DNA from: Candidatus Latescibacterota bacterium
Lineage (GTDB): Bacteria; Latescibacterota; UBA2968; GCA-2709665
Direction of reading: 5' to 3'
Assembly (NCBI GenBank): GCA_965203805.1
Contig: OZ241917.1
Span: 3,200,001 to 3,264,000 of the forward strand
Length of the DNA stretch: 64,000 nt
How positions within the stretch are numbered: the stretch's first letter is position 1; every line of letters begins with the position of its first letter. A program made the position numbers and the translations under genes. Shown one piece after another: positions 8,879 through 27,621 of this stretch. Under the pieces are notes generated by a model. That model was not told the DNA's origin. It did no database searches and saw only the letters and a list, made by a program, of their open reading frames with translations.

Positions 8879-9880
8879 CTATTTCCATTTGAAAACGACG
8901 CCCAGCGCGTCTCCGGGATCGTCGGCGAGCATCGTGTAGATTTCCTGGCACTGTTCCGGATCCGCGACGTGGGTGATGAGGTCTTCGACGGGCAACTTGC
9001 CCGCTCCCATCAGGCGCATCACCAGCGCCCGGTCCCGTTCCTTCGCCCACCGGTAGTAGATGTGATCGGCCTCCGGCGTTTTGGGCTGGTGGGCGCCCAG
9101 GATGCTGACTTCCCTCAGATGCACGTCGGCCAGAAAATCCATGTCGACGGTACCGCGCGGGGAACCCAATGCGACCACACGGCCCGCCGTGCACGCGAGC
9201 CGGACGGCGGTGGGATAAACCGCGGGTTTTCCGGTCGCTTCGATCACGACGTTGGCGCCGTCTTCCACGCAGTGTCCGCCGACCGCGTCCCTGACGTCGT
9301 CCACGTCGCCGGGATTGATGCAGACACCGGCGCCGCGGCGACGCGCCGCGTCCAGGCGGAAACCGTCCAGGTCGACGGCGATCACCGGGAGGGCGCCGGA
9401 GAGGCGCGCGAGGGTCGCGGCGAGCTGACCGACGATTCCCAGGCCGATGACGACCACGACCTCGCCCAATTCGATGCGCGCCACGCGGATTCCGTGGATG
9501 GCGATTGCGCCCATGACCATAAAGGCGGCGGCCCGGGACGACACGGCGTCGGGTACCTGCCGATGGAACGACCTGGCGCCCGAGAGGACGGAATGGCTCG
9601 CGTGGTTCCCCTGTCCGGCAACGCGGTCGCCGGGGCGGATGCCCTCAACGTCTCTGCCGACTTCCAGGACCGTGCCGACGTTGCAATAGCCGGTGCCGCG
9701 GGGGAAACGGACCGGGTTACCGGGTTCGCCTCCATGCGTCCAGCCGTGGATCTCGGTTCCGACGCTGACGGCGGTGTACTCGTTTTCGATAAGCACACCG
9801 TCATCCGGTACAGGCCCGGTCTCGAAGGACGCGACTTCCATCCGGCGAATGCCGGGAATGAGGAGACGTCTGGCTTTCAT
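8879..9880 (-). CDS. Medium-chain dehydrogenase/reductase (zinc-binding ADH superfamily)
   Basis: SVGTE and GYCNVG in the GroES-like domain; GLGIVGQL NAD-binding motif; VIEATG. Confidence 0.88.
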   Translation of the reverse strand: MKARRLLIPGIRRMEVASFETGPVPDDGVLIENEYTAVSVGTEIHGWTHGGEPGNPVRFPRGTGYCNVGTVLEVGRDVEGIRPGDRVAGQGNHASHSVLSGARSFHRQVPDAVSSRAAAFMVMGAIAIHGIRVARIELGEVVVVIGLGIVGQLAATLARLSGALPVIAVDLDGFRLDAARRRGAGVCINPGDVDDVRDAVGGHCVEDGANVVIEATGKPAVYPTAVRLACTAGRVVALGSPRGTVDMDFLADVHLREVSILGAHQPKTPEADHIYYRWAKERDRALVMRLMGAGKLPVEDLITHVADPEQCQEIYTMLADDPGDALGVVFKWK

Positions 9881-9966
9881 CTGCAAGTCCTTTCAATATG
9901 GTCGATCGCGGACGCAACGGGAAATGGTGACGGGCGCGGGATCCCGCCTGCCGGCGGGCGCGGTTC

Positions 9967-11004
9967 CTACGCCTGCCCGAGGTCCAGGGTCTCGCGGAAG
10001 AGTCGAAGGAAGTTGCCGCCCCAGACCTTGCGGATTTCGTTTTCCGAGAGGCCGCGGGCGAGCATGGCGCGGGTGAGCCGCACGAGCTTTGAGACGTCTC
10101 CGAAAACCGGAGTAGCCGAACCCATGCCGTCGTAGTCGGAGCCGACGGCAACGTGGTCGATGCCCACCAGGTCCGCCACGTAACAGATATGGTCGACCAT
10201 TCGATCCACGGAAGGGTTTTCCGGATCGATAAAGCCCGGGAGAAACGCAATGCCCATCACCCCGCCGGCCCCGGCCAGCGCCCTGAGTTGATCGTCGGTC
10301 AGGCAGCGCCAGTGGTTGCAGACGGAGAAGGCCGCGGTGTGGGTCATCGTTACCGGGAGCGAAGACCGCTCCAGAACCTGGTAGAAAGCCCTGTCGTTAA
10401 TATGGGCCAGGTCCGTGATGATGCCCAGCCGGTTGCTCTCCTCAAGTACGGCTCTGCCAAAGTCCGTCAACCCGCCGGCGCTTCCGCGTTCCCGTTCGCG
10501 GTCTTCAGGCGTGCACGGCCCGAACGGACTCCTGCTGCCCTGCAGCAAGGAGGGGTCGTCGCCGCCTTCGCCGTGGGTGATTCCGATGCAGCGAATTCCC
10601 AGGCGGTGGTAAAGACGCAATGTGTCCATTTCTCCTTCCAGCCAGCGCCCGGCGCCTTCGATCGTAAGCAGGATGCCGATCTTGCCGGTTTTTCTCGCCC
10701 GTTCAACATCCCGTGACGAGAACACCAGCATCAGGTCATCGGGATATCGCTCCACCGACGCCAGGGTCTGTTCCAGGGTAACCCGGACGTTTGCCGTGGG
10801 GCCGTTGCCGATCACGAAAAAGCCGGCGTCGAACCCGCCTTCTTTCATCCGGGGAATGTCCATATGGTAGGCATCGTCCCGTTTTTTCAGGTCCATCGGA
10901 CGTTCGCCCCGGTGCACGCGCTCCACGGGCGTGTCGTTGTGGCCGTCGACGATCAGGCACCTGTCGTGGACCGCCTGCGCTTCTTCAAGGGTGATTTCCG
11001 GCAT
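9967..11004 (-). CDS. Membrane dipeptidase (M19, renal dipeptidase family)
   Basis: VDGHND, TIEG, GLTDFG, DLAH, DHVAVGSDYDG, GGNFLR. Confidence 0.92.
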   Translation of the reverse strand: MPEITLEEAQAVHDRCLIVDGHNDTPVERVHRGERPMDLKKRDDAYHMDIPRMKEGGFDAGFFVIGNGPTANVRVTLEQTLASVERYPDDLMLVFSSRDVERARKTGKIGILLTIEGAGRWLEGEMDTLRLYHRLGIRCIGITHGEGGDDPSLLQGSRSPFGPCTPEDRERERGSAGGLTDFGRAVLEESNRLGIITDLAHINDRAFYQVLERSSLPVTMTHTAAFSVCNHWRCLTDDQLRALAGAGGVMGIAFLPGFIDPENPSVDRMVDHICYVADLVGIDHVAVGSDYDGMGSATPVFGDVSKLVRLTRAMLARGLSENEIRKVWGGNFLRLFRETLDLGQA

Positions 11005-11074: not shown

Positions 11075-12397
11075 CTACGGCGGATCGACGGGTACTTTCC
11101 GGTTCTTGGGGACCAGCGGATCGTACGTGAAACCGTCGGAGCGTTTTTCGAACTCCGCGCGCGCCTTCTTCAGGAGATCCGGATCCCTGCAGAGATCGAC
11201 CGCACTTCCGGCGAATACCTTCGCTGTCTGCCGGATCGCGCGCTCGGCGAAAGGCAGGGCGGCCTGCGCGGCCATGTCCCGGTGGTGGCCGGGCGTACCC
11301 TTCGCGTAACAGACCATCTCGAAGCGACCCAGGGGCGCCAGCCATGAAACATTGTCCTCGTCGGTAGACCCCCTGCCCTGCGAGCCGCTGCCCTTGCCGA
11401 TCTTCGTATTGAATCCCTTCTTGTATCCCAGGGCCTCGGCGCGCTCCCGGTCGGCTTCCGTGGGTTTGGGCGGCCCGAACAGTTTCAGATTCTCTCGAAC
11501 GATTTCACACATCGCCTTGTTGGGCAGACGGGGGTACACCGCGGTGATGCGCGACCACTTCATCTTCGTGTCCGTGGCTCTGGCCGCGCCCCGTGCGCAT
11601 CCGGTGAGACGCTCGCGCACGCCGTCGACCTGCTTGCGGTCTTTCCCCCGCACGAAGTACCAGATTTTCGCATAGGCCGGAACCACGTTGGGCGCGTCGC
11701 CTCCATCGCGGATCACGGAATGGATCCTGACGTTCTCGGGGACATGCTCCCGGAGATAGTTGGCGGCAATATCCGTGAGCATCACCCCGTCCAGCGCGCT
11801 GCGGCCCCGGTGGGCCGACGCCCCGTGGGCGGTACGGCCGAAGAATTCGTAGACGACGGAGTCCAGCGACGATCCGCCGAAATTATTGACGCCGGAAGTG
11901 TCTCCCGGATGCCAGGCGAGGCAGGCGTCCAGGTCCCGGAACGCGCCGTCGCGGGCCATATAGACTTTGCCGGCCAGCGTCTCTTCCGCCGGGCAGCCGT
12001 AGTAGACGATTTTTCCGGATGTACCGGTCGATTCGAGAGTCTTCGCAGCGGCGACCGCACCCACGGCCGGGGCAACGCCCAGGAGATTGTGGCCTCAGCC
12101 GTGACCCCATTGCCCCTCCTCGGGGCCGCAGTTGGGCAACGCGTCGTATTCGCCGAGCATCCCGACCGCCGGTTTACCGGCGCCGCTGGCCGCGCGAAAT
12201 GCCGTGGGGATATTCTTGAACGGGAACTCGACGTCGAAGCCGCGCGAGGCCAGGTAGTCCGCGATGGCCCGGGAGGATTTGACCTCCCGGAAGGGCCGCT
12301 CCGCCCACGCGTGCACCCGGCGGGAGAGGACCCTGGCGCGTTTTGACTCTGCGGCGACGGCGCGATTGACGAGACTCTTTTTTTCTTTTGGCTTCAT
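11075..12397 (-). CDS. M20 amidohydrolase (AbgB/Acy1L2-like), 440 aa, with in-frame TGA at codon 101; candidate selenoprotein (alternative: nonsense pseudogene)
   Basis: ORFs 12095..12484 and 11075..12064 are in the same frame and read GEYDALP...GHG-TGA-GHNLLG...GCPAEE...WHP...GSTD. The TGA (12095-12097) replaces the Cys of the family motif GHGCGHNLLG. ATG at 12397 follows AAGGGG. Confidence 0.85.
12061..12094 (-). promoter_or_regulatory. Candidate bacterial SECIS hairpin
   Basis: After UGA: GG CCAC AAUCU CC U GGGC GUU GCCC C GG CC GUGG. Apical loop starts with GU, 18 nt past the UGA; unpaired U at position 17 counting from the U of UGA. Confidence 0.6.
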
Positions 12398-12452
12398 GAG
12401 GTTCCCCTTTCCATCCTGTCCATGTTTATTCCGAATTCTTGTACCGAATGCA

Positions 12453-13541
12453 TTAAGGGTTTGCGACGGCATCGGCCACCGCATCGCCCGCCTCGCGCGT
12501 CCCGGCGGCGCCGCCCAGGTCTGCAGGGTGGTTCTTAGGACTCTCCAGCGTTCGATCCACGGCGCGGTCGATCGTCTCCGAGGCGGCGGTGGCTTCGGGA
12601 TCGTTGCGGCGCGCGCCCAGCCAGGACAGCATCATCCCCGCGGACAGGATCTGAGCCATGGGGTTGGCAATACCCTCCCCCGCGATATCGGGTGCGGTGC
12701 CGTGGGACGGCTGAAAGACGCCGTAGCGGTCCCCCACGTCCGCGGACGGCGCCATCCCCATTCCGCCGATGGTGGCGGCGGCCAGATCGGAGATGATATC
12801 CCCGAACATATTTTCCGCGACGACGACGTCGTACCAGCCTGGGTTGCGCAGTTGGTACACGGTGAATGCGTCCACGTAGGCGTAGTCCCGTTCGACGTCG
12901 GGATAGGTCTCCGCGACCTCGTCGTAGATCTGCCGGAAGAACGCCATGCTCTTCAGAATGTTGGCCTTGTCGACCGAGGTGACGCGGCTGGCGCCGTCCG
13001 CGGGCGCCCCCTTCCGCTGCCTCGCGATTTCAAAGGCGTACCGGACGATCCGCTCGGTCCCGGCGCGGGTGATCACCATGTTGTCCACGGCGAGGCTGTC
13101 GCCGACGCGAACCCCGGCGCCGCGGGAGGCATAGAGGCCCTCTGTATTCTCACGCAGGATGACGTAATCGAGCGGCGGATCTCCATCGAGAAGCGGAGGC
13201 ACGCCGCGGTATTTCTTGATGGGCCGGATCCCGGCGTAAAGGTCCAGTTCGAAGCGGAGTGTCAGTTGGGGTGCGATTTCCGTGCCGTCGGGAAAGCGGA
13301 CGTCCGGATCGCCGGCCGAGCCGAAGAGCACGGCATCGGCCTGTTTGCAGGCTTCGAGCGTGGATTCCGGGAGGTCTTCGCCGGTCTCGGCGTAACACCC
13401 CGCGCCCACCGGATGTTCGGAAAACGTGAATCGAAGATCGGGATGCGGCTCCTCCAGGGCGAGGAGCACTTTGAGCGATTCCGCGACCACTTCCGGGCCG
13501 ACGCCGTCTCCGGGGAGCACCGCGATGTTGTACGTTGGCAT
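12453..13541 (-). CDS. Isocitrate/isopropylmalate/tartrate dehydrogenase family protein
   Basis: LPGDGVGPEV, RENTEGLY, VDKANIL, NMFGDIISD, PSHGTAPDIAG, ANPMAQILS. Confidence 0.92.
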   Translation of the reverse strand: MPTYNIAVLPGDGVGPEVVAESLKVLLALEEPHPDLRFTFSEHPVGAGCYAETGEDLPESTLEACKQADAVLFGSAGDPDVRFPDGTEIAPQLTLRFELDLYAGIRPIKKYRGVPPLLDGDPPLDYVILRENTEGLYASRGAGVRVGDSLAVDNMVITRAGTERIVRYAFEIARQRKGAPADGASRVTSVDKANILKSMAFFRQIYDEVAETYPDVERDYAYVDAFTVYQLRNPGWYDVVVAENMFGDIISDLAAATIGGMGMAPSADVGDRYGVFQPSHGTAPDIAGEGIANPMAQILSAGMMLSWLGARRNDPEATAASETIDRAVDRTLESPKNHPADLGGAAGTREAGDAVADAVANP

Positions 13542-13551
13542 TCCCGTCCTT

Positions 13552-14730
13552 TCAGATTATGGCGTTCCGTGAAGGGCGGCGTGGGCGCTGGCGATCGTGG
13601 ATGCCGATGCGGAATCCGCCCGCTGACTTCACGCCCCGTTCCAGGACGTCCGGTTCGACGTCGAATCCCGCGCCGGGCGTTTCAGGGACGACCAGCCTGC
13701 CGTTTCGCATCCGCCATCCGTCCAGGACGATGCCCGGCATGTCCGCGGGGGCCGCTTCCAGGAGGCTGAAGTTGGGAATGGACGCGGCGAAATGGGCATG
13801 GGCGTACCGTTCGATGACGCTGCCCCAGCAATGGGGGGCGCACCTCGCGCCCCAGGGTTGGATACGGTCGGCGATGGCTTTCCACCGCGTCAGCCCCTTG
13901 TTTCGGAAGTCGTGCTGCACGATATCGATCCATCCTCTTTCGACCATATCGAAGAAGTCGGGCGGAGGCGGCCCGGATTCGCCGTCGGCCACGAGCGTGT
14001 GGTAGCCTCTCCGGTCAATGGCTTCCTTAAAGGCCTCGTTGAACGCCCGGTCTTCGGGAAAGGGTTCTTCGAACCAGTAGATCCCCGCGTCCCGGCAGCG
14101 TTCGAGAATGTCCAGCGCGATATTGAGCGTGGCGCCGTTGTTGGCGTCAACGAGAATTTTCGCGTCCGGTCCCGCGGCTTCCCGGACCGCGTGGATCACC
14201 AGTACGTCCCTGTCCGTGCCTTCGCGAACCGGCATCCAGCGCGCGCCGCGCCCGATCTTGATTTTGAAATTGCAGTAGCCGGAATCGCGGCCGACCTTGA
14301 CTTCCTCGTGGAAGATTCGCCGCGCCCCGTCGTCTGCGGTTCCCAGGTCGTCAATGTAGATGGAACCGTCGTAGAGTTCCACCTCTCGGGCGCCGCGCGC
14401 GCCCAGGAGCTTGAAAAGGGGCGCCCCTTCACATCTGGCGGCCAGGTCCCACAGAGGCAGATCGATCGGCGCGCCATCGGCGGTCGACCCGCCCGGTAGT
14501 TCAAAGAGCGCCGAGGGGCGCATTCCGAGCAGTGCTTCGGCGCGCTCCCTGCCAATGGCGGACCAGCCGATACCCACGGCGCCGCCCGTGGTGCAGATGC
14601 GCACGACCGGATCGGTGACGGCGGGACCATGGACGCCGATCCGGGCATTGGATCCCACGACGCGCGGGCGCTTTCCGTGCAGTACGACCTTTTCGATCCT
14701 GGCGATCGGGTCGGAAAAAGCAATTGACAT
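13552..14730 (-). CDS. Mandelate racemase/muconate lactonizing enzyme (enolase superfamily) protein
   Basis: DLPLWDL, KIKIG (KxK), VDAN, WFEEPF, ADGE, PH, PGAG. Confidence 0.85.
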   Translation of the reverse strand: MSIAFSDPIARIEKVVLHGKRPRVVGSNARIGVHGPAVTDPVVRICTTGGAVGIGWSAIGRERAEALLGMRPSALFELPGGSTADGAPIDLPLWDLAARCEGAPLFKLLGARGAREVELYDGSIYIDDLGTADDGARRIFHEEVKVGRDSGYCNFKIKIGRGARWMPVREGTDRDVLVIHAVREAAGPDAKILVDANNGATLNIALDILERCRDAGIYWFEEPFPEDRAFNEAFKEAIDRRGYHTLVADGESGPPPPDFFDMVERGWIDIVQHDFRNKGLTRWKAIADRIQPWGARCAPHCWGSVIERYAHAHFAASIPNFSLLEAAPADMPGIVLDGWRMRNGRLVVPETPGAGFDVEPDVLERGVKSAGGFRIGIHDRQRPRRPSRNAII

Positions 14731-14849
14731 GAAGGGTTTCCGGGATCCGGGTTGGGTGTACGATCCGGTAAAGTAAGCCAAAAACCAGGGGTTGGAAATC
14801 AAAAAAGCCGGCGTCACAGGGCGCCTCTATCGCACACGGCATTTAGGTC

Positions 14850-14878
14850 TTGACGGACGCTACAAGATGTAGTACTTT
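14850..14878 (+). promoter_or_regulatory. Candidate sigma70 promoter for smc
   Basis: TTGACG-N17-TACTTT. Confidence 0.45.
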
Positions 14879-15110
14879 TCAGACACCGCAACGGATTATT
14901 CCCCAATCTGTTGCGTATTCCTCACCTCCCCATCTCTCCCCGTCTCGTTCTTATATTCGCGATACCGTATTCATAGCGAACGTCCCCGCGGTCCGGGCGG
15001 CGGCACGTGGGACAGGAATGGTTGTCGTTCCTGCCCTGCGGCCGCGCCTCCTGGTTTCCTTGCGTGCGCCCGTACCGGCCGGATGTTTGTGTCTTTCAGG
15101 AGGCTGCGCC

Positions 15111-18100
15111 TTGCATCTTTCGCGACTGACGGCATTGGGCTTCAAGTCTTTCGTACAACAGCTGGACCTTTCGCTTCAGAAAGGCATCACCTGCGTTGTC
15201 GGCCCGAACGGCTGCGGTAAATCCAACGTGGTGGATGCGCTGCGCTGGGCGCTGGGCGAACAACGGGTCCGGTCGCTGCGCAGCAACAATATGGAAGACG
15301 TGATTTTTTCGGGTACGCGAAACCGGAAACCGCTCGGCATGGCGGAGGTATCGATCACCATTGACAATGCGGAGCGGTTTCTCTCGACCGATTATTCCGA
15401 AGTGACCGTGACCCGCCGGCTGTTCCGGTCCGGAGACAGCGATTACCTTTTGAACAAGGTTCCCTGCCGGTTGAAGGATATTCAGAATCTGCTGATGGAT
15501 ACGGGGCTGGGCGCACACGCCTATTCCGTGATCGAGCAGGGAATGATGGACGAGATCATCAGCGACAAGCCCGAGGAACGGCGGCGGCTGTTCGAAGAGG
15601 CGGCGGGTGTGACCCGGTACAAGGTACAGCGCCGGGCTGCGTGGAACCGTCTGGAGTCCGTCCGGCGGGACCTGGAGACGGTGGATGCCGTCATGGGGGA
15701 AATCGAGCGGCAGGTGAAGTCACTCGCCCGTCAGGAGCGGAAGGCCCGCCTTTACAGACAGTTTGCAGACCAGATGAAGGACCTCGACGTCCGGCTGGGA
15801 CGCCACCGGTTCTTTCGGATGTCCGAAAGGTCCCGTCCCATCGCGGACGAGATGGCTCTTCTGAATGAGGACGTCGGAGTTGCCGCCGGAGAAATCGCCC
15901 GCCTGGAGGCGCGGCTGGAAGCCGTCCGGACGGAACTGGCGGAGCGCGATCAGGCGCTTGCGGAAGCGAACGCGGAAGTGAGCAGACAGAGTCAGCTCGT
16001 GCATCGGAAAGAAACGCATATCGCGGTCGCTCAGGAGAGAATCCGATCTATCGACACCTTCCTGGAGCAGGCCGACCGGCGGAAGGGGGTCATGGCGGCG
16101 CGGCTGGATACGGCCGAAAGGGAAGCGGCGGCGTCGGCGCGGATGGGAGCGGAGGCGCGGGAAGCATTGCAGCGGGCGGAAGGGGAACTGGAGACCGAGC
16201 GAGGCGAGCTGGAAGCGACCAACCAGGCGCTGGACGCACGGCGAACCCGCGCCGACGAAGAGAGAACCCAACTGATAGCCGCCCTGGGCGAAATCAACAA
16301 GGGAAGCGGCCGGTTGGAGCGCGAACGTGCGCGGCTGGAGGGAATTGCGAAACACCAGGCCCGCCTCGAAGCCGACGCAAAGCAGTCGGCGCTCCGGAAA
16401 GCGGAGGCGGACGACTCCGGACGGGAGGCGGAACGGCAGATCGACCTCCTGGAACGCGAGATTGAAGGAAAGAGCCGGCTGAGAGAGACACACGCCGCGG
16501 AATACGGTCAGCTGCTCGAACAACAGGAAGACCTGACCGGGGCGCGCAGCCGCCTGCTGGCCAGAAAAGAGGCCGACGACGCGCGGGTTGGACTTCTGAA
16601 AAGGCTTCGGGAAGGATTCGAGGGGTATTCGAGCGGCGTCCGCGCGCTGGCGGTGGACTCTCCGTTTGCGGACCGCGTGCGCGGGGTGGTTGCGGACCGG
16701 ATCGACGTGGACGGGCGGTACGCGATCGCCATCGAAGCCGCCCTCGGACGCGCGCTGGAATGTCTGCTGGTGGATGCGTCCGCCGACGCGATAAAGGCCA
16801 TAGACTACCTGAAATCGGGGGACCTCGGATCGGCGGCGTTTCTGCCGCTGGATTCGGTTTCGAACGGTAACGACGCCTCCTGGACGCCGCCGGATGCGGA
16901 CGGCGTGGCGGGCAGGGCTTCGGACCTGCTGCACGGCGAGGATTCTCCGGTGCACGCGCTGCTTCGCCGGACGCTCGTGGTGAACAACGCCGAAACCGCA
17001 GTTGGGCTGTTGGGAGAAACGCGTACTCGCGGTGTGGACGTGGTTACCGAGAACGGCGAGTTGTTCTCGGCCGACGGCACGATATACGGCGGGAAGGCGG
17101 CCGACGGCGGCACGGGCCTGATCGGGCGCAGGCAGGAGATCGAAACGCTGGAAGCCAACCTGTGCGCTACCGCCGCCGACCTGCGGGCGCTGGATGCGGG
17201 ACTCGAGGAAACCGCTGCATCCCTGGTCGAGACTCAGGCGCTTATCGACCGGACCGACGGGATTCTGGCCGACCTGAACAATCGCCTGGCGACGCATCGC
17301 CGGGACTTTCAGATCGCGCAGACCGAAGAGCAGCGACAGTTGCGGATGGGGGTGGACCTGCAGGAGGAAATCGCGGCTGCGATGAACGACGAAACCGGGC
17401 TTCGAGAAACGATCGCTTCCGAGGAGGCGGAACTCGGCGTGCTTCAGAAACGCCGGGAGCAACTGGAAGCGGCGGCGCGCAAGGCCGACGTGGCGCTTCG
17501 GGAGCGCGAACATCAGCAGCGGGCCGAACAGGACGCGGTTTCCAGGAGGCTGGTGGAGATCACTTCACTGAAGGGCAGCGTGGACCGGCACGAACGCGAA
17601 GAGCAGACGCGGACCCGGGACGCGGTCGAAACCAACCGGGAAATGAAACGACTGGCCACGGACTGCGATGAACGGCGGACGGAAAGGCTCGACCTGGAAA
17701 AGGCCGCCCGGGAATCCGAAGAGGAGCTGGAGCGCCTGCATCGCACGCAGGACGAACTGGAAGCGAAGCGGGACCGTCAGGCGGAGCGGCAGCAGGCGTT
17801 GTTGACGGATACCCGGAAGCTGGAAGAGGAAGCGCGGGACAAGAACCGCCAGGCGAATCAGAACCGGGACCGTCTGGTTGAACTACAGGGCGAACTGGCG
17901 GAATTGAAGACGGGATCCGAAGCGTTGCACGCTCGAATTCTGGACGAATACGAGGTGGACGTCGGGGAGGCGGGCGCATTGGACGATCCGGAATTCGATG
18001 AAGACGCGACCGAAAAACGGGCAGGCGAGCTACGCGAAAGGCTCCGCCGGATGGGTCCGGTCAATCTCGCCGCCGTGGAAGAATACGAGGACCAGAAGAG

Positions 18101-18707
18101 CCATCACGAGTTTATGGCCAAACACAGGAGCGATCTGCTCGAAGCGGCGGAAACCCTTCAGCGGACCATTTCCCGGATCGACCGCACCGCCCGCGGCCGG
18201 TTCATGGCGACCTTCGATCAGATTAAAGAGAATTTCCGGAACACGTTCACGGCATTCTTCGAAGGCGGCCAGGCGGATCTCCTGATGCCCCCGGACGAAG
18301 ACCCGCTGGAGGCGCCGCTGGAAATCATCGCCCGGCCCAGAGGCAAGCGGCTCCAGCACATCAATCTGCTTTCCGGGGGAGAGCGGGCGCTGACCGCGAT
18401 CGCGCTGTTATTCGCGATCTACCTGGTCAAGCCCAGCCCGTTCTGCATTCTCGACGAGGTAGACGCCCCCCTGGACGACGCCAACGTCACCCGCTTCGTA
18501 CGGGTGCTCAAACGGTTCGCGGCCGACACGCAGTTCATCGTGGTGACCCACAACAAGGTCACGATGGATGCGGCCGACTGCCTGCATGGCATTACAATGG
18601 AAGAGCCGGGGGTCTCCAGGCTGGTATCGGTCAGGCTGGACCACGAGACCCCGGGCGGCAACGGGCAGGCGAACGCGGTGGCGGAAACCACGGCCGCGGA
18701 CGATTGA
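15111..18707 (+). CDS. smc: Chromosome segregation protein SMC
   Basis: TTG start after AGGAGG. GFKSF, Walker A GPNGCGKSN, coiled coils with hinge, LSGGE signature, LDEVDAPLD. Confidence 0.97.
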   Translation: MHLSRLTALGFKSFVQQLDLSLQKGITCVVGPNGCGKSNVVDALRWALGEQRVRSLRSNNMEDVIFSGTRNRKPLGMAEVSITIDNAERFLSTDYSEVTVTRRLFRSGDSDYLLNKVPCRLKDIQNLLMDTGLGAHAYSVIEQGMMDEIISDKPEERRRLFEEAAGVTRYKVQRRAAWNRLESVRRDLETVDAVMGEIERQVKSLARQERKARLYRQFADQMKDLDVRLGRHRFFRMSERSRPIADEMALLNEDVGVAAGEIARLEARLEAVRTELAERDQALAEANAEVSRQSQLVHRKETHIAVAQERIRSIDTFLEQADRRKGVMAARLDTAEREAAASARMGAEAREALQRAEGELETERGELEATNQALDARRTRADEERTQLIAALGEINKGSGRLERERARLEGIAKHQARLEADAKQSALRKAEADDSGREAERQIDLLEREIEGKSRLRETHAAEYGQLLEQQEDLTGARSRLLARKEADDARVGLLKRLREGFEGYSSGVRALAVDSPFADRVRGVVADRIDVDGRYAIAIEAALGRALECLLVDASADAIKAIDYLKSGDLGSAAFLPLDSVSNGNDASWTPPDADGVAGRASDLLHGEDSPVHALLRRTLVVNNAETAVGLLGETRTRGVDVVTENGELFSADGTIYGGKAADGGTGLIGRRQEIETLEANLCATAADLRALDAGLEETAASLVETQALIDRTDGILADLNNRLATHRRDFQIAQTEEQRQLRMGVDLQEEIAAAMNDETGLRETIASEEAELGVLQKRREQLEAAARKADVALREREHQQRAEQDAVSRRLVEITSLKGSVDRHEREEQTRTRDAVETNREMKRLATDCDERRTERLDLEKAARESEEELERLHRTQDELEAKRDRQAERQQALLTDTRKLEEEARDKNRQANQNRDRLVELQGELAELKTGSEALHARILDEYEVDVGEAGALDDPEFDEDATEKRAGELRERLRRMGPVNLAAVEEYEDQKSHHEFMAKHRSDLLEAAETLQRTISRIDRTARGRFMATFDQIKENFRNTFTAFFEGGQADLLMPPDEDPLEAPLEIIARPRGKRLQHINLLSGGERALTAIALLFAIYLVKPSPFCILDEVDAPLDDANVTRFVRVLKRFAADTQFIVVTHNKVTMDAADCLHGITMEEPGVSRLVSVRLDHETPGGNGQANAVAETTAADD

Positions 18708-18864: not shown

Positions 18865-20940
18865 TTAAACCGAACCCAGGCTCTTCAGGATCTTCGCGAC
18901 AATGGCATCCGTGTCGCGGATTCCGACTCCGGACAGCCGCTCCAGGATCATCCCCTGCGGGTCCACCAGGAAATAGGCCGGAATCCCGCGCACGCTATAG
19001 GCGCCGGTCGTCTTGGAACGCCATGCGCCCGCGCGCACGTGCACCCCTTCGATCTGATGGGTTTCGATGGCTTTGCGCCATTCGGCGTCGCTCGAATCCA
19101 GTGAGAGGTTGAGGAAAACCACCGGCTGACCGGCGGTTTCTTTCTTAATCCTTCTGAGATCGGGCAAGTTGCCGATACACGGACCGCACCAGCTTGCCCA
19201 GAAGTCCAGCAGCACGACCTTGCCCCTGAACTGGCTCAGCGATACGGGCCGGCCGTCCAGATCCTCCAGCGTGAAATCGGGGGCCGGACGTCCCGGCTGG
19301 AGGGCCATCGCCTTGTCCAGCGCCGCCTGGACCGGCGCGTTGTATTCGGGATAGGGATTGGTCGTCCGGTAGTCCCGCCACTTGCGACGGACCAGTTCAA
19401 AGCTGTTGCCGCCGTACTCGAAACTTCGGATCAATTCCCCGGCCAGAAACCAGTAAAGTACGCGCCCATTCAATTTCTTCTCGGCCAGCTCAATCCTGTG
19501 TGGAAGCCTGGGCATGGACCGTTTCCTGATTGCATAGATCGAATCCAGCTTCGCCTGCACCGCCTGCGGCAGGCCCAGACCCGTGAGGTCCAGCTTCCGG
19601 GACAGGCTGAGCGGCTGACGATTTTCGTACAGGGAGTCCAGATGCGCGACAAACTCCGGCGACGGGTCCAATTCCGACAGATCCACCATTTCCGACAACC
19701 TTTGCGTCTTGTGGATCGAATTCAATTGCCCTTCCATGTCCTTGCCTTCTTCTACGGGCAGCCGGAGAACCAGCGAACCGCCTGTGGTATCGATTTCCGG
19801 TTTTTTCAGCTTGCTTGAAGTCGTGATCCTGTACGATCTGCCACTCCTTTCGTAGAAGGAGTCGAGACGGGCGTGAGCTGCCTGGGGGACGCCCAATTTC
19901 GGCAGATCGATGATGTCGGACAGTGTGGATTTACGCCTGTTGTCATACAGCGAGTCAAGTCTGCCTACGACAGGTTTCGGCAGATCCGACGCACCCAGCC
20001 GGATCATTTTCGACAGCTTCGGATGCCACTCGTACCGCGCGTAGAGTGAGTCGAGTTTTGCGACGGTCTCCTCCCGAAGGTCCAGACTCGACAGATCGTA
20101 CTGATCGCTGAGCCTGTTGGACGGCGGCATCCTCATCATTTCCAGGTCCAGCGTCCGGATGAGGTAGGTACTGTACGTACCCATGCCAATTGCCTTTTCG
20201 TCCACCAGCGGGACCCGTTTCAGGAAGTCGTGGAATTCAGGCGGGATATCCGGGTTCTCGCGGCCGGTGGCGCGCCGGTAATTTTCCGGGTATGAAACCT
20301 TCAGAAAGGCATACGTGTAGTTGAAAAAGCGCGTCGCGTACTCGACGAATTCCGGCGAGAACGCGTATCTCGTTCGCCGCATCTCCAGGAATTCAAGCTG
20401 GTCCGTGCGCCACCCGTCCGCCAGGCGGGAGAAGGCTTCCGCGTCCATTTTCCTGGAGTCCCTGATTTCCTTCTGGAAGTCCTGGAACCGGGGGTACCAT
20501 TCGACAATAAACCGGCTGTTGTCCGCATTGTTTCCGCTGAACCGGAACGAGGTGTGGAGACGGCCGGGGTGGATTTTGATATGCAGTCTGTCGCCGGGTT
20601 CGACAAAGAAAACCAGCGAACCGGGCTTGAAGGCATACGACGCGGCCTGCCGCACCCACTTCCATGGGACGCTTCTGCTTTTGAAACTTCCCCTGACGAG
20701 GGTCCCGCGGACGACGGGAATCTCGAGCGCGAACCGGTTCCGGCCGTCCAGAGCCACGCGCTGCTCGGATTGTCGACCCAGTGCCCAGGGCGGGTCGTAA
20801 CGGAACGTGATCTCACGCGACGTGGGGTTGCGTACTTCGCCGGTGATGATCGCGACCGATGGCGGGCCGGTTTCTGACGCCGAGGCGAAAGTCGACATCA
20901 TCATGAAGGCCGCGAGGGTACTGACGAAAAGGTTATTCAT
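18865..20940 (-). CDS. Exported TlpA/ResA-like redoxin with long N-terminal region and five ~31-aa internal repeats
   Basis: Signal peptide; C-terminal APDFTL...LDFWASWCGPC...GIPAYFLVDPQG; repeated LS-x3-(D/R)L...LDS(L/F/I)Y units. Confidence 0.9.
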   Translation of the reverse strand: MNNLFVSTLAAFMMMSTFASASETGPPSVAIITGEVRNPTSREITFRYDPPWALGRQSEQRVALDGRNRFALEIPVVRGTLVRGSFKSRSVPWKWVRQAASYAFKPGSLVFFVEPGDRLHIKIHPGRLHTSFRFSGNNADNSRFIVEWYPRFQDFQKEIRDSRKMDAEAFSRLADGWRTDQLEFLEMRRTRYAFSPEFVEYATRFFNYTYAFLKVSYPENYRRATGRENPDIPPEFHDFLKRVPLVDEKAIGMGTYSTYLIRTLDLEMMRMPPSNRLSDQYDLSSLDLREETVAKLDSLYARYEWHPKLSKMIRLGASDLPKPVVGRLDSLYDNRRKSTLSDIIDLPKLGVPQAAHARLDSFYERSGRSYRITTSSKLKKPEIDTTGGSLVLRLPVEEGKDMEGQLNSIHKTQRLSEMVDLSELDPSPEFVAHLDSLYENRQPLSLSRKLDLTGLGLPQAVQAKLDSIYAIRKRSMPRLPHRIELAEKKLNGRVLYWFLAGELIRSFEYGGNSFELVRRKWRDYRTTNPYPEYNAPVQAALDKAMALQPGRPAPDFTLEDLDGRPVSLSQFRGKVVLLDFWASWCGPCIGNLPDLRRIKKETAGQPVVFLNLSLDSSDAEWRKAIETHQIEGVHVRAGAWRSKTTGAYSVRGIPAYFLVDPQGMILERLSGVGIRDTDAIVAKILKSLGSV

Positions 20941-25791: not shown

Positions 25792-27621
25792 CTATTGAGA
25801 GTTATATTCGGACATCTTGCGTTTAACGAGATCTACCAATCCTTCGCCGCGCAGGTTTTTCGCGATGATCTCCCCATCGGGGGCAATGAGAAACGTGGTT
25901 GGCCACGCTACAATACCGTAAACTTTCTCGATTTCCTCGTTTGAAACACCGTTGGAATACGGAATCTCGCGAATTCTTATGGTATCTTCCAGGTCTCTTG
26001 GATTATCGTGAGCCAGACCAATGATCGTAAGGCCCCCGTCCGGGAATGATTGGTGGAGTTTCTTGAGATTTGGCAGTTCGTTTATGCAGGGTCCGCACCA
26101 GGTCGCCCAGAAATCAAGAAATACAAACCCCCCTCGGTAATCGGATAACCGCAACGAATCTCCTCCAACGGCCGGCGCCACGAATTCGGGTGCGGCACTT
26201 TCTTCTCCCAGTTCCAGTGCATTCGACATCCTTTCAACGCCGCTGCCCTGGACCGTCCTGGAATTCGGATATTTGCGAATCAGATAATTCAGAACGTTGC
26301 GCGCGGCAACTGCGTTTCCGTAATCCCGGAAATGTTGTGCCGCACGCCAGAGCAGTTTTTCCCCTTCACGTGAACCGGGCGGCAGGTTTCGTTCCTGCGC
26401 CACCAGAATGCCGGTAAAGAAAAAAGGCGGAACGTTGTATTTCTCGCTGAGATCCGGTGCGTGTTGTAGCCCTTCATCGAGGCGCAGATAGGTGATTGTA
26501 TCGTACGTCCTAAAGAAAATGGAATTCGGATCCATTTTCTTTGCCAACTGCGCCATCTGGCTAAAGTAGCTCTCGTAGACCGTACTCTGATAGTGCTCCC
26601 TTCTCTTTTCTTCGAACTCCTGTTTATTGTGTTTCAGACTTTGCAAACCCTTCATCGCTTCAGCGTGGGGATGAAATCTTTTCAGGAATTCAAATCTGAT
26701 TTTTACGAAGAGCTGTTCGAAATAAGCGGGGTATCGATTCGCAATTTCCCGGAATCTTTCTTCGCGCTCGATAAAGGCGGAAACGTCGTTCTCTGAGGAT
26801 TGGGTGGTGTCGCGTTTGCTGAACAGAACCTGCATGTTTTCTTTTTGGAAAGTGTAGATTTCATCCACAAGACTGGCGAAGGCAGTCTGGTGTTGTCCAC
26901 CTGAGAATTCGGCTCTTGAATCCCTCTTCGGCTGGACATACTGAGATGGATCAAAGATGATCTCTCCACCTTCGTAGATTGAATTGAATGTAACGAAACT
27001 ACGAGGGTTAGGAACTGCCTGGGAATGACTCAAGTCATAAACGTCGCTACCACCGTTACTTACGATAAACCTATACCCGTCACCGATTTTTACGGGATTA
27101 TCGCCTTGTAGAACCCACACGCTATCCTTCCTCACCATTTCAATCGCGCCCCACGGCCGCCATCGACAAAAGTCACCCCACAGTTTGACCCATTCAATGC
27201 CGGGTTTCAGACCGAAGGGTTCAAGATAAGCCGTCACATTTGCGTGCGTGTCGGCGTCAGGAACAAGCACCGACGTTTTTAACGTCTCATAACCGAAAGC
27301 GGAGATAACAAGCGTATACAGCCCGGGTTCCACGTCGAAACTAAATTCCGTAGTGTCTAGCGTCCTGGTGTTTTTCGGCCTGACGACAAAGGGCATCCAC
27401 GCCAATTTCAATTCTTCTATCCCCACATAAATTGAATCCGGAATCGCCTTGTCGTTAAACTTGACCGTCCCCGAAACAGTCGATCTGGAAGGCTTACGCT
27501 CTCCCGGTCGACCCGAGATTTCCAGGTCCGGCTCCTGCACAACAGACAGCAACGAGTCCGTTGACGCCGAAACGTCGCCGGAAAGGAAGAGGAAAAGTGC
27601 AGTAGCGATTCTCAATATCAT
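25792..27621 (-). CDS. Second exported TlpA-like redoxin with an unrelated N-terminal region
   Basis: Signal peptide; FLDFWATWCGPCINELP and WPTTFLIAPDG; lower GC. Confidence 0.88.
   Translation of the reverse strand: MILRIATALFLFLSGDVSASTDSLLSVVQEPDLEISGRPGERKPSRSTVSGTVKFNDKAIPDSIYVGIEELKLAWMPFVVRPKNTRTLDTTEFSFDVEPGLYTLVISAFGYETLKTSVLVPDADTHANVTAYLEPFGLKPGIEWVKLWGDFCRWRPWGAIEMVRKDSVWVLQGDNPVKIGDGYRFIVSNGGSDVYDLSHSQAVPNPRSFVTFNSIYEGGEIIFDPSQYVQPKRDSRAEFSGGQHQTAFASLVDEIYTFQKENMQVLFSKRDTTQSSENDVSAFIEREERFREIANRYPAYFEQLFVKIRFEFLKRFHPHAEAMKGLQSLKHNKQEFEEKRREHYQSTVYESYFSQMAQLAKKMDPNSIFFRTYDTITYLRLDEGLQHAPDLSEKYNVPPFFFTGILVAQERNLPPGSREGEKLLWRAAQHFRDYGNAVAARNVLNYLIRKYPNSRTVQGSGVERMSNALELGEESAAPEFVAPAVGGDSLRLSDYRGGFVFLDFWATWCGPCINELPNLKKLHQSFPDGGLTIIGLAHDNPRDLEDTIRIREIPYSNGVSNEEIEKVYGIVAWPTTFLIAPDGEIIAKNLRGEGLVDLVKRKMSEYNSQ

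Follow-up and report, generated by a model that had tools for sequence, protein, structure and literature searches.

An in-frame TGA at the metal-ligand cysteine position of an M20D amidohydrolase gene in Candidatus Latescibacterota: a predicted selenoprotein

Introduction

Does a TGA codon that interrupts an otherwise complete amidohydrolase gene end the protein, or does it encode selenocysteine (Sec)? The question is raised by a gene of the M20D family found in a stretch of 64,000 nucleotides (nt) from a Candidatus Latescibacterota bacterium (GenBank assembly GCA_965203805.1, contig OZ241917.1, positions 3,200,001 to 3,264,000 of the forward strand). This whole stretch, at its full length, is called the window throughout. 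The gene lies on the reverse strand, and its TGA falls at codon 101, at the place of the Cys in the H-x-C-G-H motif of the family. An earlier reading of the window made from the letters alone (hereafter, the sequence-only reading) had proposed that Sec serves there as a metal ligand. The comparative data reported below make it highly probable that the gene is conserved and truly codes for Sec. Features are listed with their coordinates in Table 1.

Results

Reading frame and protein family

When the frame is translated with TGA as U, codon 101 is the only internal stop, in the context W-G-H-G-TGA-G-H-N-L-L-G, as the sequence-only reading had stated. The other motifs of the family, which the same reading had described as intact, are all in place: EYDAL at residues 83–87, PAEE at 136–139, WHP at 162–164, GSTD at 343–346 and HH at 371–372. 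Located on both sides of the TGA, they are invariant in all the 41 distinct TGA-bearing orthologues described below, with the exception of T345, conserved in 24 of the 41.

The protein matches the NCBIfam model TIGR01891 ("amidohydrolase") over residues 25–373 (183.9 bits; cut-off 153.75), and also the Pfam M20_dimer model (score 26.4; cut-off 21). No selenoprotein-specific model of NCBIfam release 20.0 matches it. Among proteins of solved structure, HmrA (3RAM, 8.5e-42) and human PM20D2 (7YH4, 3.1e-33; 8XZC, about 3e-33) match best in sequence, and 3IO1, 4EWT and 1XMB match more weakly. The product is predicted to be a full-length, metal-dependent amidohydrolase of M20D type; judging from its nearest relatives, it would most likely act as a dipeptidase or as an N-acyl-amino-acid hydrolase. 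Relatives of the protein are named AbgB in JGI records. This identity was rejected: the AbgB-type chain 3IO1 matches at 2.7e-05 only (26.7 bits), much more poorly than HmrA and PM20D2 do, the NCBIfam matches include no AbgB model, and no abgA- or abgT-like gene is found among the four flanking genes scanned.

In public records the TGA forms appear as short C-terminal proteins of 294–336 residues, in GenBank of 320–335. Three such shortened products (MCE2440861.1, MDE2998309.1, NKB70503.1) are named "peptidase dimerization domain-containing protein" in GenBank.

Conservation of the TGA and its cysteine counterparts

Orthologues were searched in six frames in 61 related genomes. They were found in 52, and 49 of these, at 70–100 % identity, hold exactly one TGA; the three matches devoid of TGA are more distant, one at 67 % and two at about 40 % identity. 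In a scan of 168 species genomes of the phylum Latescibacterota, in which orthologues were defined by a match at or below 1e-120, 56 genomes matched, and a single TGA occurs in 55. The 56th (G059) has TGC. The TGA occupies the same column in all the 55 TGA-bearing species genomes (30/30 plus 25/25 loci), which represent 13 genera in 3 families, and a private nonsense mutation is ruled out by this distribution. The motif was also readable in 77 of 79 loci from the genome_contigs set (TGA in 26, TGC or TGT in 51), and in 74 of 80 metagenome loci (TGA in 4, TGC or TGT in 69, TAC in 1). Altogether, 60 TGA loci, corresponding to 41 distinct genes (4 from metagenome contigs), and 120 Cys loci were available for comparison.

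Residue U101 aligns with the C of the GH[GA]CGHN motif in each of the 120 Cys-bearing loci. The column holds C also in 76 database proteins matched by motif, and in the PDB chains. Exact look-up confirmed that full-length Cys proteins at 71–76 % identity truly bear C. Homologues featuring TGA in this very column, and TGC or TGT elsewhere in the family, are what the sequence-only reading led one to expect.

The same reading had asked for confirmation of the TGA at read level. A DNA contig from a sponge metagenome, obtained in a separate study (X4), differs from the window at 9 positions over 1701 nt, none of which falls within the TGA. The TGA is also bridged, unchanged, by a metatranscriptome-library contig (X20, record 9; positions 12016–12166). 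Parts of the gene not covered by RNA-library contigs (as 11584–11925), and contig X18, which extends 25 nt past the TGA, were excluded as evidence.

Coding constraint downstream of the TGA

In the codon alignment of the 41 genes, from +15 to the end, the share of variable columns is 0.53 for first, 0.39 for second and 0.98 for third codon positions. Downstream of the TGA, the window gene (L027) differs from L055 by 143 synonymous and 81 non-synonymous codon changes. No further in-frame stop was found in any of the 41 genes. The frame beyond the TGA is under purifying selection.

The Sec machinery and further TGA-interrupted genes

The genome holds selA (559 bits), selB (371 bits) and the gene for tRNA-Sec (73.4 bits) as one cluster, and selA, selB, selC and selD all score above curated cut-offs. 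The machinery on which the sequence-only reading depended is thus present. In the same genome, further genes belonging to known selenoprotein families are interrupted by TGA. The selD gene (G000:C1:2775468-2776391, L015) has its own in-frame TGA (C-G-TGA-A-A-K), followed by a clean hairpin with the loop GGUC at nt 21–24; here, as for all hairpins below, nucleotides are counted from the U of the UGA. One TGA is found in an fdhA-like gene (S-R-A-TGA-H-A-P; C1:788378-789121, L216), and one in each of two AhpC/TSA-like genes (C1:4220148-4220639, L227, and C1:294688-294960), in the contexts TGA-P-T-C (UxxC) and W-TGA-R-R-S (UxxS). A reassignment of the genetic code was rejected, as TGA is the commonest stop of the genome, ending 1407 of 2494 long open frames, and most genes recovered in the family searches have no internal TGA.

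Of the 49 TGA-bearing related genomes, 48 yielded selA and 47 yielded selB; as related genomes are not independent, this co-occurrence serves to check consistency and carries no statistical weight. Neither gene was found in G059, which has the Cys form (86 % complete), nor in its genus-mate G055 (90 % complete; genus g14, same class). This genus may have lost the Sec trait, or may never have had it.

A conserved RNA element 3' of the TGA

Columns of the 41-gene alignment which encode an invariant amino acid of degenerate codon number 183. Just five of them have the same codon in every gene, and all five are located directly 3' of the TGA: GGC at +6, GCC at +8, CCG at +9, GCC at +10 and GCG at +13. 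Codon +12 is GGT in 40 of the 41 genes. Taken over six consecutive codons, third-position entropy is lowest in the run that starts at +5 (0.08 bits; the median is 1.13). Free variation is seen at codons +1 to +4. When 25 further genes were added, codons +6, +8, +10 and +13 remained invariant in 37 distinct 48-mers, and codon +9 was found to be CCA in four genomes (L247, L257, L262, L263). All four have UUG at +5, and nucleotides 16 and 30 form a U-A pair in place of U-G or C-G. The absence of the C-A combination is weak support for this pair, UUG being the prevailing codon of that family in any case. Among 22 closely related Cys forms the region varies freely in its codons, and even in its amino acids, with the exception of L140, a metagenome contig with TGC, which encodes G-V-A-P-A-V with GGC GTG GCC CCG GCC and keeps the upper hairpin described below. 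L140 may be a recent reversion from Sec to Cys, or it may indicate that GC-rich codons had produced the stem incidentally beforehand. The constraint on the nucleotides 3' of the TGA is specific to TGA forms; lacking in 21 of the 22 close Cys forms, it is found in the TGA-bearing genes, where the sequence-only reading had proposed to look for hairpin conservation.

The SECIS (selenocysteine insertion sequence) of E. coli fdhF is a hairpin located directly 3' of the UGA, with an unpaired U and a small loop beginning with G-U. The sequence-only reading had drawn a similar hairpin in the window gene. It exists as drawn, and its upper stem (hairpin 1) is conserved, but the lower stem CCAC/GUGG (C6–C9/G34–G37) is not, as only 68.8 % of its cells are paired across orthologues; moreover, a second hairpin is, by the published SECIS model, an equally good candidate. 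Hairpin 1 is made by the pairs C15-C16/G30-G31 and G18-C21/G25-C28, with U17 and C29 unpaired and the loop G22-U23-U24. Across orthologues, four of its pairs are invariant, two change on one side, and 95.3 % of the cells are paired. The remark that the loop uses a GTT Val codon in a gene otherwise ending its codons in G or C was roughly right: the GC content at third codon positions is 0.80, and GTT accounts for a minority of the Val codons (4 of 33).

Hairpin 2 is formed by seven pairs, C29–U35/G40–G46, which flank the loop G36-G37-G38-U39 (RGGU in orthologues). One-sided changes were observed at pair 44/49 (UG in 22 genes, CG in 19) and at pair 39/54 (GC in 34, GU in 7) of the RNAalifold consensus. 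The energy of hairpin 1 alone is −7.9 kcal/mol, that of hairpin 2 is −10.0, and that of the hairpin 1 core plus hairpin 2 is −15.4. The structure is deduced from frozen synonymous sites rather than from covariation, because stems are invariant or changed on one side only. The fold of minimum free energy (MFE) of the 58-nt context differs from the hairpin as first drawn. A scan of positions 11950–12150 with Rfam returned only chance-level matches (MEG3_2, Guanidine-I, CcsR1), far below gathering scores.

The bacterial SECIS (bSECIS) model given in a 2026 review (PMC13188914) calls for an apical loop of 3–9 nt with G in its first two positions, an upper stem of 4–16 bp, a distance of 16–37 nt from the UGA and an MFE of −7.5 kcal/mol or lower. 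Both hairpins fit the model, hairpin 1 with the loop GUU, 4+2 bp, a spacing of 18 nt and its −7.9 kcal/mol, hairpin 2 with the loop GGGU, 7 bp, a spacing of 32 nt and its −10.0 kcal/mol. Hairpin 1 is the favoured candidate for the SelB site, because the loops GGUC and GGUCU of the selD and fdhA-like genes start, as its GUU does, 21–22 nt after the U of the UGA. Like the fdhF element and the bSECIS consensus, hairpin 1 features an unpaired U 5' of the upper stem, a loop beginning with G-U and a spacing within 16–37 nt. It is unlike the E. coli element in having a loop of 3 nt (5 nt if C21-G25 is open), an unconserved lower stem and a second conserved hairpin beside it.

Residue 101 and the metal site

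In M20D enzymes a strictly conserved Cys, part of a C-x-H motif, binds both metal ions, according to PMC11389852 and PMC11511702. These papers on homologues bear out the sequence-only reading, which had taken the Cys of H-x-C-G-H as a ligand of the binuclear site. U101-G-H103 has the spacing of C-x-H, and in three PDB alignments residue 101 faces the Cys of G-H-A-C-G-H-N. Residues H99, G100, G102, H103, E138, E139, H163 and H371/H372 are invariant in the 41 genes. An AlphaFold model built with 38 sequences (mean predicted local distance difference test score 93.0, predicted template modelling (TM) score 0.91) displays the two-domain M20 fold, a catalytic alpha/beta/alpha domain with an inserted dimerisation domain. 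Foldseek gave TM scores of 0.81 to 3RAM (HmrA) and 0.78 to PM20D2; the top matches are 3RAM, 8ZEL/7YH4, 6SLF, 4EWT, 3IO1, 1YSJ and 1XMB. On the basis of homologue descriptions and alignment, the ligand set of the binuclear site (U101-G-H103, E138-E139, H163, H371/H372) appears intact, and the assignment of residue 101 as bridging ligand of the metal pair is well supported by homology.

Evolution of the Sec and Cys forms

A quick maximum-likelihood tree (LG+G4) of 123 rows combined the 41 Sec genes with 26 Cys loci out of the 120 and with 56 full-length proteins from databases (from P0002–P0060); the more distant Cys loci and all shortened proteins were left out. The Sec genes and six Cys proteins form one clade of 47 rows (support 86, not starred), nested among Cys forms of Latescibacterota, Planctomycetota, Kiritimatiellota and others. 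The six proteins truly carry C, as verified by exact look-up, and the tree needs at least five changes between Sec and Cys. A single origin of Sec is likely, given the support of 86. The simplest reading is a single gain followed by reversions to Cys; the direction of change is not inferred from the tree. The Sec form would have its origin inside a family of Cys proteins, within the Latescibacterota or close to them, and has apparently returned to Cys several times.

Genomic neighbourhood

Genes flanking the amidohydrolase gene are listed in Table 1 with the features described above.

Table 1. Features of the amidohydrolase locus (positions refer to the window)
Feature	Positions	Strand	Remarks
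M20D (TIGR01891) amidohydrolase gene	11075..12397	-	440 codons plus TAG, one in-frame TGA read through
TGA codon 101, proposed Sec codon at the C of H-x-C-G-H	12095..12097	-	same column in 55/55 species genomes
Whole hairpin as first drawn, including lower stem C6–C9/G34–G37	12061..12092	-	−12.5 kcal/mol
Hairpin 1 (upper stem of the sequence-only reading)	12067..12083	-	loop starts 18 nt after UGA
Hairpin 2, alternative or additional SECIS candidate	12052..12069	-	RNAalifold consensus of 41 genes
Enolase-superfamily (MR_MLE) gene, cluster head	13552..14817	-	PF13378 7.2e-40; weak NCBIfam matches to acid-sugar dehydratases
Isopropylmalate/tartrate/isocitrate-type dehydrogenase, upstream neighbour	12453..13541	-	PF00180 2.4e-91
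M19 membrane-type dipeptidase, downstream neighbour	9967..11004	-	PF01244 1.9e-81
Zinc-type alcohol dehydrogenase family gene, cluster tail	8879..9886	-	PF00107 7.9e-19

Flanks were examined in 30 TGA-bearing loci. The M20D gene is adjoined by the dehydrogenase (PF00180) in 24 and by the M19 dipeptidase in 18; the zinc-type alcohol dehydrogenase is matched over more than 300 residues in 22, and by short matches in 2 more. The cluster made by the MR_MLE, Iso_dh, M20D, M19 and zinc-type alcohol dehydrogenase genes is conserved in the family to which the window belongs, and partly in the next family. Around the Cys forms examined the cluster is absent. Derivation of a pathway from the neighbours was rejected, as NCBIfam puts none of them above cut-off. 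The adjoining dipeptidase and the kinship to HmrA and PM20D2 hint weakly at a dipeptide or an N-acyl-amino-acid as substrate.

Some additional observations concern the same region and the same organisms. A gene for an SMC protein (SMC_N, SMC_hinge) of 1285 residues lies at 14850–18707 on the forward strand, divergent from the M20D cluster. AhpC/TSA-thioredoxin-like domains were found at 18946–19296 and 25864–26196, on the reverse strand, in frames of 692 and 627 codons devoid of internal TGA; these are large multidomain proteins of redoxin type encoded near the M20D gene. At position 12434, in the spacer between the M20D and dehydrogenase genes, one base of the window is absent both in the X4 DNA contig and in an RNA-library contig of X19; either the strains differ here, or the window assembly has an indel of one base. 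The genome_contigs titles assign TGA-bearing organisms to Candidatus Latescibacterota, and some metagenome-assembled genomes (MAGs) to Gemmatimonadota. Six MAGs labelled Gemmatimonadota or Gemmatimonadetes (L063, L065, L071, L072, L074, L077) carry the gene, at 72–93 % identity to genomes labelled Latescibacterota, and four (L063, L065, L071, L072) keep the M20D neighbours. The phylum labels of these six records look inconsistent.

Discussion

Comparison with known systems

HmrA of Staphylococcus aureus (3RAM) and human PM20D2 (7YH4, 8ZEI) are the best matches among solved structures in both sequence and fold. They share with the window protein the GH-x-CGHN, EE and His motifs, and the catalytic and dimerisation domains, but have Cys at the bridging position, and are only 25–27 % identical to it. 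HmrA acts on Met-X dipeptides, to judge from the title of the paper cited for it, and PM20D2 on beta-alanyl-lysine, according to PDB titles. PM20D2 is a beta-alanyl-lysine/Xaa-Arg dipeptidase, and the substrates of neither enzyme can be transferred to the window protein. In CsAga (6SLF), the Sapep-like 4EWT and Cbz-ase, a bidentate or bridging Cys of a C-x-H motif is described as binding both Zn ions. 6SLF and 4EWT are fold matches of the model, yet only 17 % identical to it in structural alignment. All three carry Cys where the window gene has the TGA proposed to encode Sec.

Sec as a metal ligand is already known: in FdhA and the [NiFeSe] hydrogenases, as described in a review, it directly ligates the catalytic Mo/W or Ni, and is inserted by the same machinery. 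These are redox enzymes with redox-active metals, whereas the window protein would have a hydrolytic binuclear centre, with selenium proposed to bridge two Lewis-acid ions. Non-redox selenoproteins have been predicted as well. Candidates found in the catalogue are a glutamine amidotransferase related to the C-terminal domain of CTP synthase (GxUxG), UshA-like and SelO-like proteins, and a methylated-DNA-protein-cysteine methyltransferase. Likewise, they would have Sec in place of a functional Cys in a protein which is not an oxidoreductase, and were predicted from Sec/Cys pairs plus SECIS. They differ in that none belongs to the metallopeptidases of M20 or clan MH; Sec acts in them as a nucleophile or has no assigned role, and for none has Sec been stated to bridge the metals of a binuclear hydrolase.

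Most prokaryotic selenoproteins are known or presumed thiol-type oxidoreductases, according to the 2026 review (PMC13188914), Table 1 of which lists 119 families and subfamilies and no amidohydrolase, peptidase or hydrolase. An amidohydrolase selenoprotein was not found either by look-up of terms in deep-Sep, the BSepDB paper, a 2022 review, a preprint on "eight unexpected families" and a paper on marine Deltaproteobacteria (PMC12013277, PMC13326102, PMC9312934, bioRxiv 10.1101/2022.07.06.499078, PMC8318568), though such a gene could be listed in Table 6 of PMC8318568, in Table S2 of deep-Sep or in the BSepDB database. No paper was found in which "Sec-containing" is paired with "amidohydrolase". 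The sequence-only reading took this family not to have been described as a selenoprotein, and the catalogue of 119 lists no such enzyme; Sec as a metal ligand and, by prediction, Sec in non-redox proteins were each known before, as seen above. The apparent novelty lies in the enzyme family, that of the M20 metallohydrolases, and in the type of metal site, in which Sec would be the ligand shared by two metals.

Weighing the explanations

In the mechanism proposed here, UGA codon 101 would be decoded as Sec by SelA, SelB, tRNA-Sec and SelD, giving rise to a full-length binuclear metallo-amidohydrolase. Decoding would be directed by the conserved RNA element in the 45 nt after the UGA, in the form of the apical hairpin GGGC-GUU-GCCC (hairpin 1) and/or the adjoining 7-bp hairpin with the loop RGGU. 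As Sec would replace the Cys that binds both catalytic metals, a selenolate would be the bridging ligand. The codon with its conservation and its Cys counterparts, the selection on the frame beyond it, the nucleotide constraint found in TGA forms, the Sec machinery, the fold and the ligand set are established by the data; Sec insertion itself, the acting hairpin, the ligand role of selenium, the benefit of Sec and the substrate are inferred.

A number of observations weigh against this proposal. Sec insertion is predicted from nucleotide sequence; coverage by RNA-library contigs is no proof of transcription. The Pfam model of the catalytic domain, PF01546, recorded for many relatives, does not reach an E value of 0.001 on the window protein. 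Six Cys proteins within the Sec clade indicate that Sec is dispensable. selA was missed in one of the 49 genomes and selB in two (the MAGs concerned are G032, 91 % complete, and G041, 84 % complete). Other points touch the RNA element. Of 200 shuffled versions of the 58 nt that follow the UGA, 187 fold at least as well as the real sequence (z = +1.36), and no base pair is changed on both sides across orthologues, shuffles being uninformative on this point as stems are invariant. One TGA gene (L047) has ACA in the loop of hairpin 1, devoid of the G of the model; L140 indicates that G-V-A-P-A in a GC-rich genome can form hairpin 1 in the absence of a TGA; and two hairpins fit the bSECIS model, either of which may be the acting one. 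The hairpin in a single sequence is not beyond chance. The comparative signal, made by the TGA column and the frozen synonymous sites, is.

The same selenoprotein could be served by hairpin 2, alone or stacked on a small hairpin 1. Hairpin 2 was the one chosen by the RNAalifold consensus, is the longer and more stable of the two, and has the higher pair probability (0.30 against 0.12); it explains the frozen codons +10, +12 and +13, as the one-sided changes at two pairs, and its spacing is inside the range of the model. The placement of the selD and fdhA-like loops, however, is that of hairpin 1, which alone explains the frozen codons +6 and +8 and the U or A in the third place of codon +7, and in one of the four CCA genomes (L263) a pair of hairpin 2 is broken, whereas all four keep the 16-30 pair of hairpin 1. 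We consider hairpin 2 a possible, though rather unlikely, acting element. Readings that deny selenium altogether fare worse. UGA might be read through by a near-cognate tRNA inserting Cys or Trp, the conserved RNA merely stimulating the event; Cys is functional at position 101 in all relatives, and the case for selenium is drawn from sequences. Yet TGC, one mutation away, would be far more efficient, and TGA has been kept in 55 species; the TGA form accompanies selA and selB, and the Cys form occurs in a genus in which neither was found; the RNA element shares spacing and loop with the other Sec genes of the genome. Selenium-free read-through is thus very improbable. Gene callers, for their part, treat the TGA as a real stop, and their C-terminal products would fit a split gene, in which a 100-residue N-terminal peptide is followed by a re-initiated protein of 320–335 residues; a decaying pseudogene or an assembly error would also account for the interruption. 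But the break lands on the codon of the ligand Cys, splitting H-x-C from G-H of one metal-binding motif, and 55 species share this codon although the third positions around it all vary. Purifying selection acts on both halves, with no other stops or frameshifts in 41 genes. The annotated starts differ among records (MLGVAPA, MGVAPA, MGAVAAA, MQQNK and others), as artefacts of the callers would, and an independent assembly agrees on the TGA. A real stop, in any of these versions, has hardly any likelihood left, and decoding of codon 101 as Sec is retained as the preferred explanation.

What a selenolate at a hydrolytic site might offer

In [NiFeSe] hydrogenases Sec is thought to shield the metal site from irreversible over-oxidation, as stated in PMC13188914. 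By analogy, one may guess that a bridging selenolate in the amidohydrolase resists irreversible oxidation and/or alters metal preference. The organisms are uncultured, and sample labels refer to sponge tissue and sea water. Taken together, the gene might encode the first binuclear metallohydrolase bridged by selenium, in which Sec, as a non-redox ligand of both Lewis-acid ions, was selected for resistance to oxidation and/or a shift in metal preference in symbionts living in oxygenated sponge tissue and sea water, its SECIS perhaps derived from the hairpin formed by G-V-A-P-A codons in a GC-rich genome. This combined scenario is tentative, and we give it somewhat less than an even chance. If the SECIS did pre-exist as such a codon hairpin, as L140 may illustrate, a single change of TGC to TGA would have been decodable at once.

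The cost of Sec is usually justified by redox chemistry, and the well-supported Sec/Cys pair described here, located where two metals of a hydrolytic centre would share a ligand, offers a test case of another kind. Natural Cys forms at 71–76 % identity allow a side-by-side comparison of rate, metal content and resistance to oxidation. The freeze of synonymous sites specific to Sec forms may serve to flag such genes independently of any SECIS model. Annotated as fragments of 320–335 residues, the genes of this family escape surveys made at protein level, so that selenoproteins of the Latescibacterota would be under-counted.

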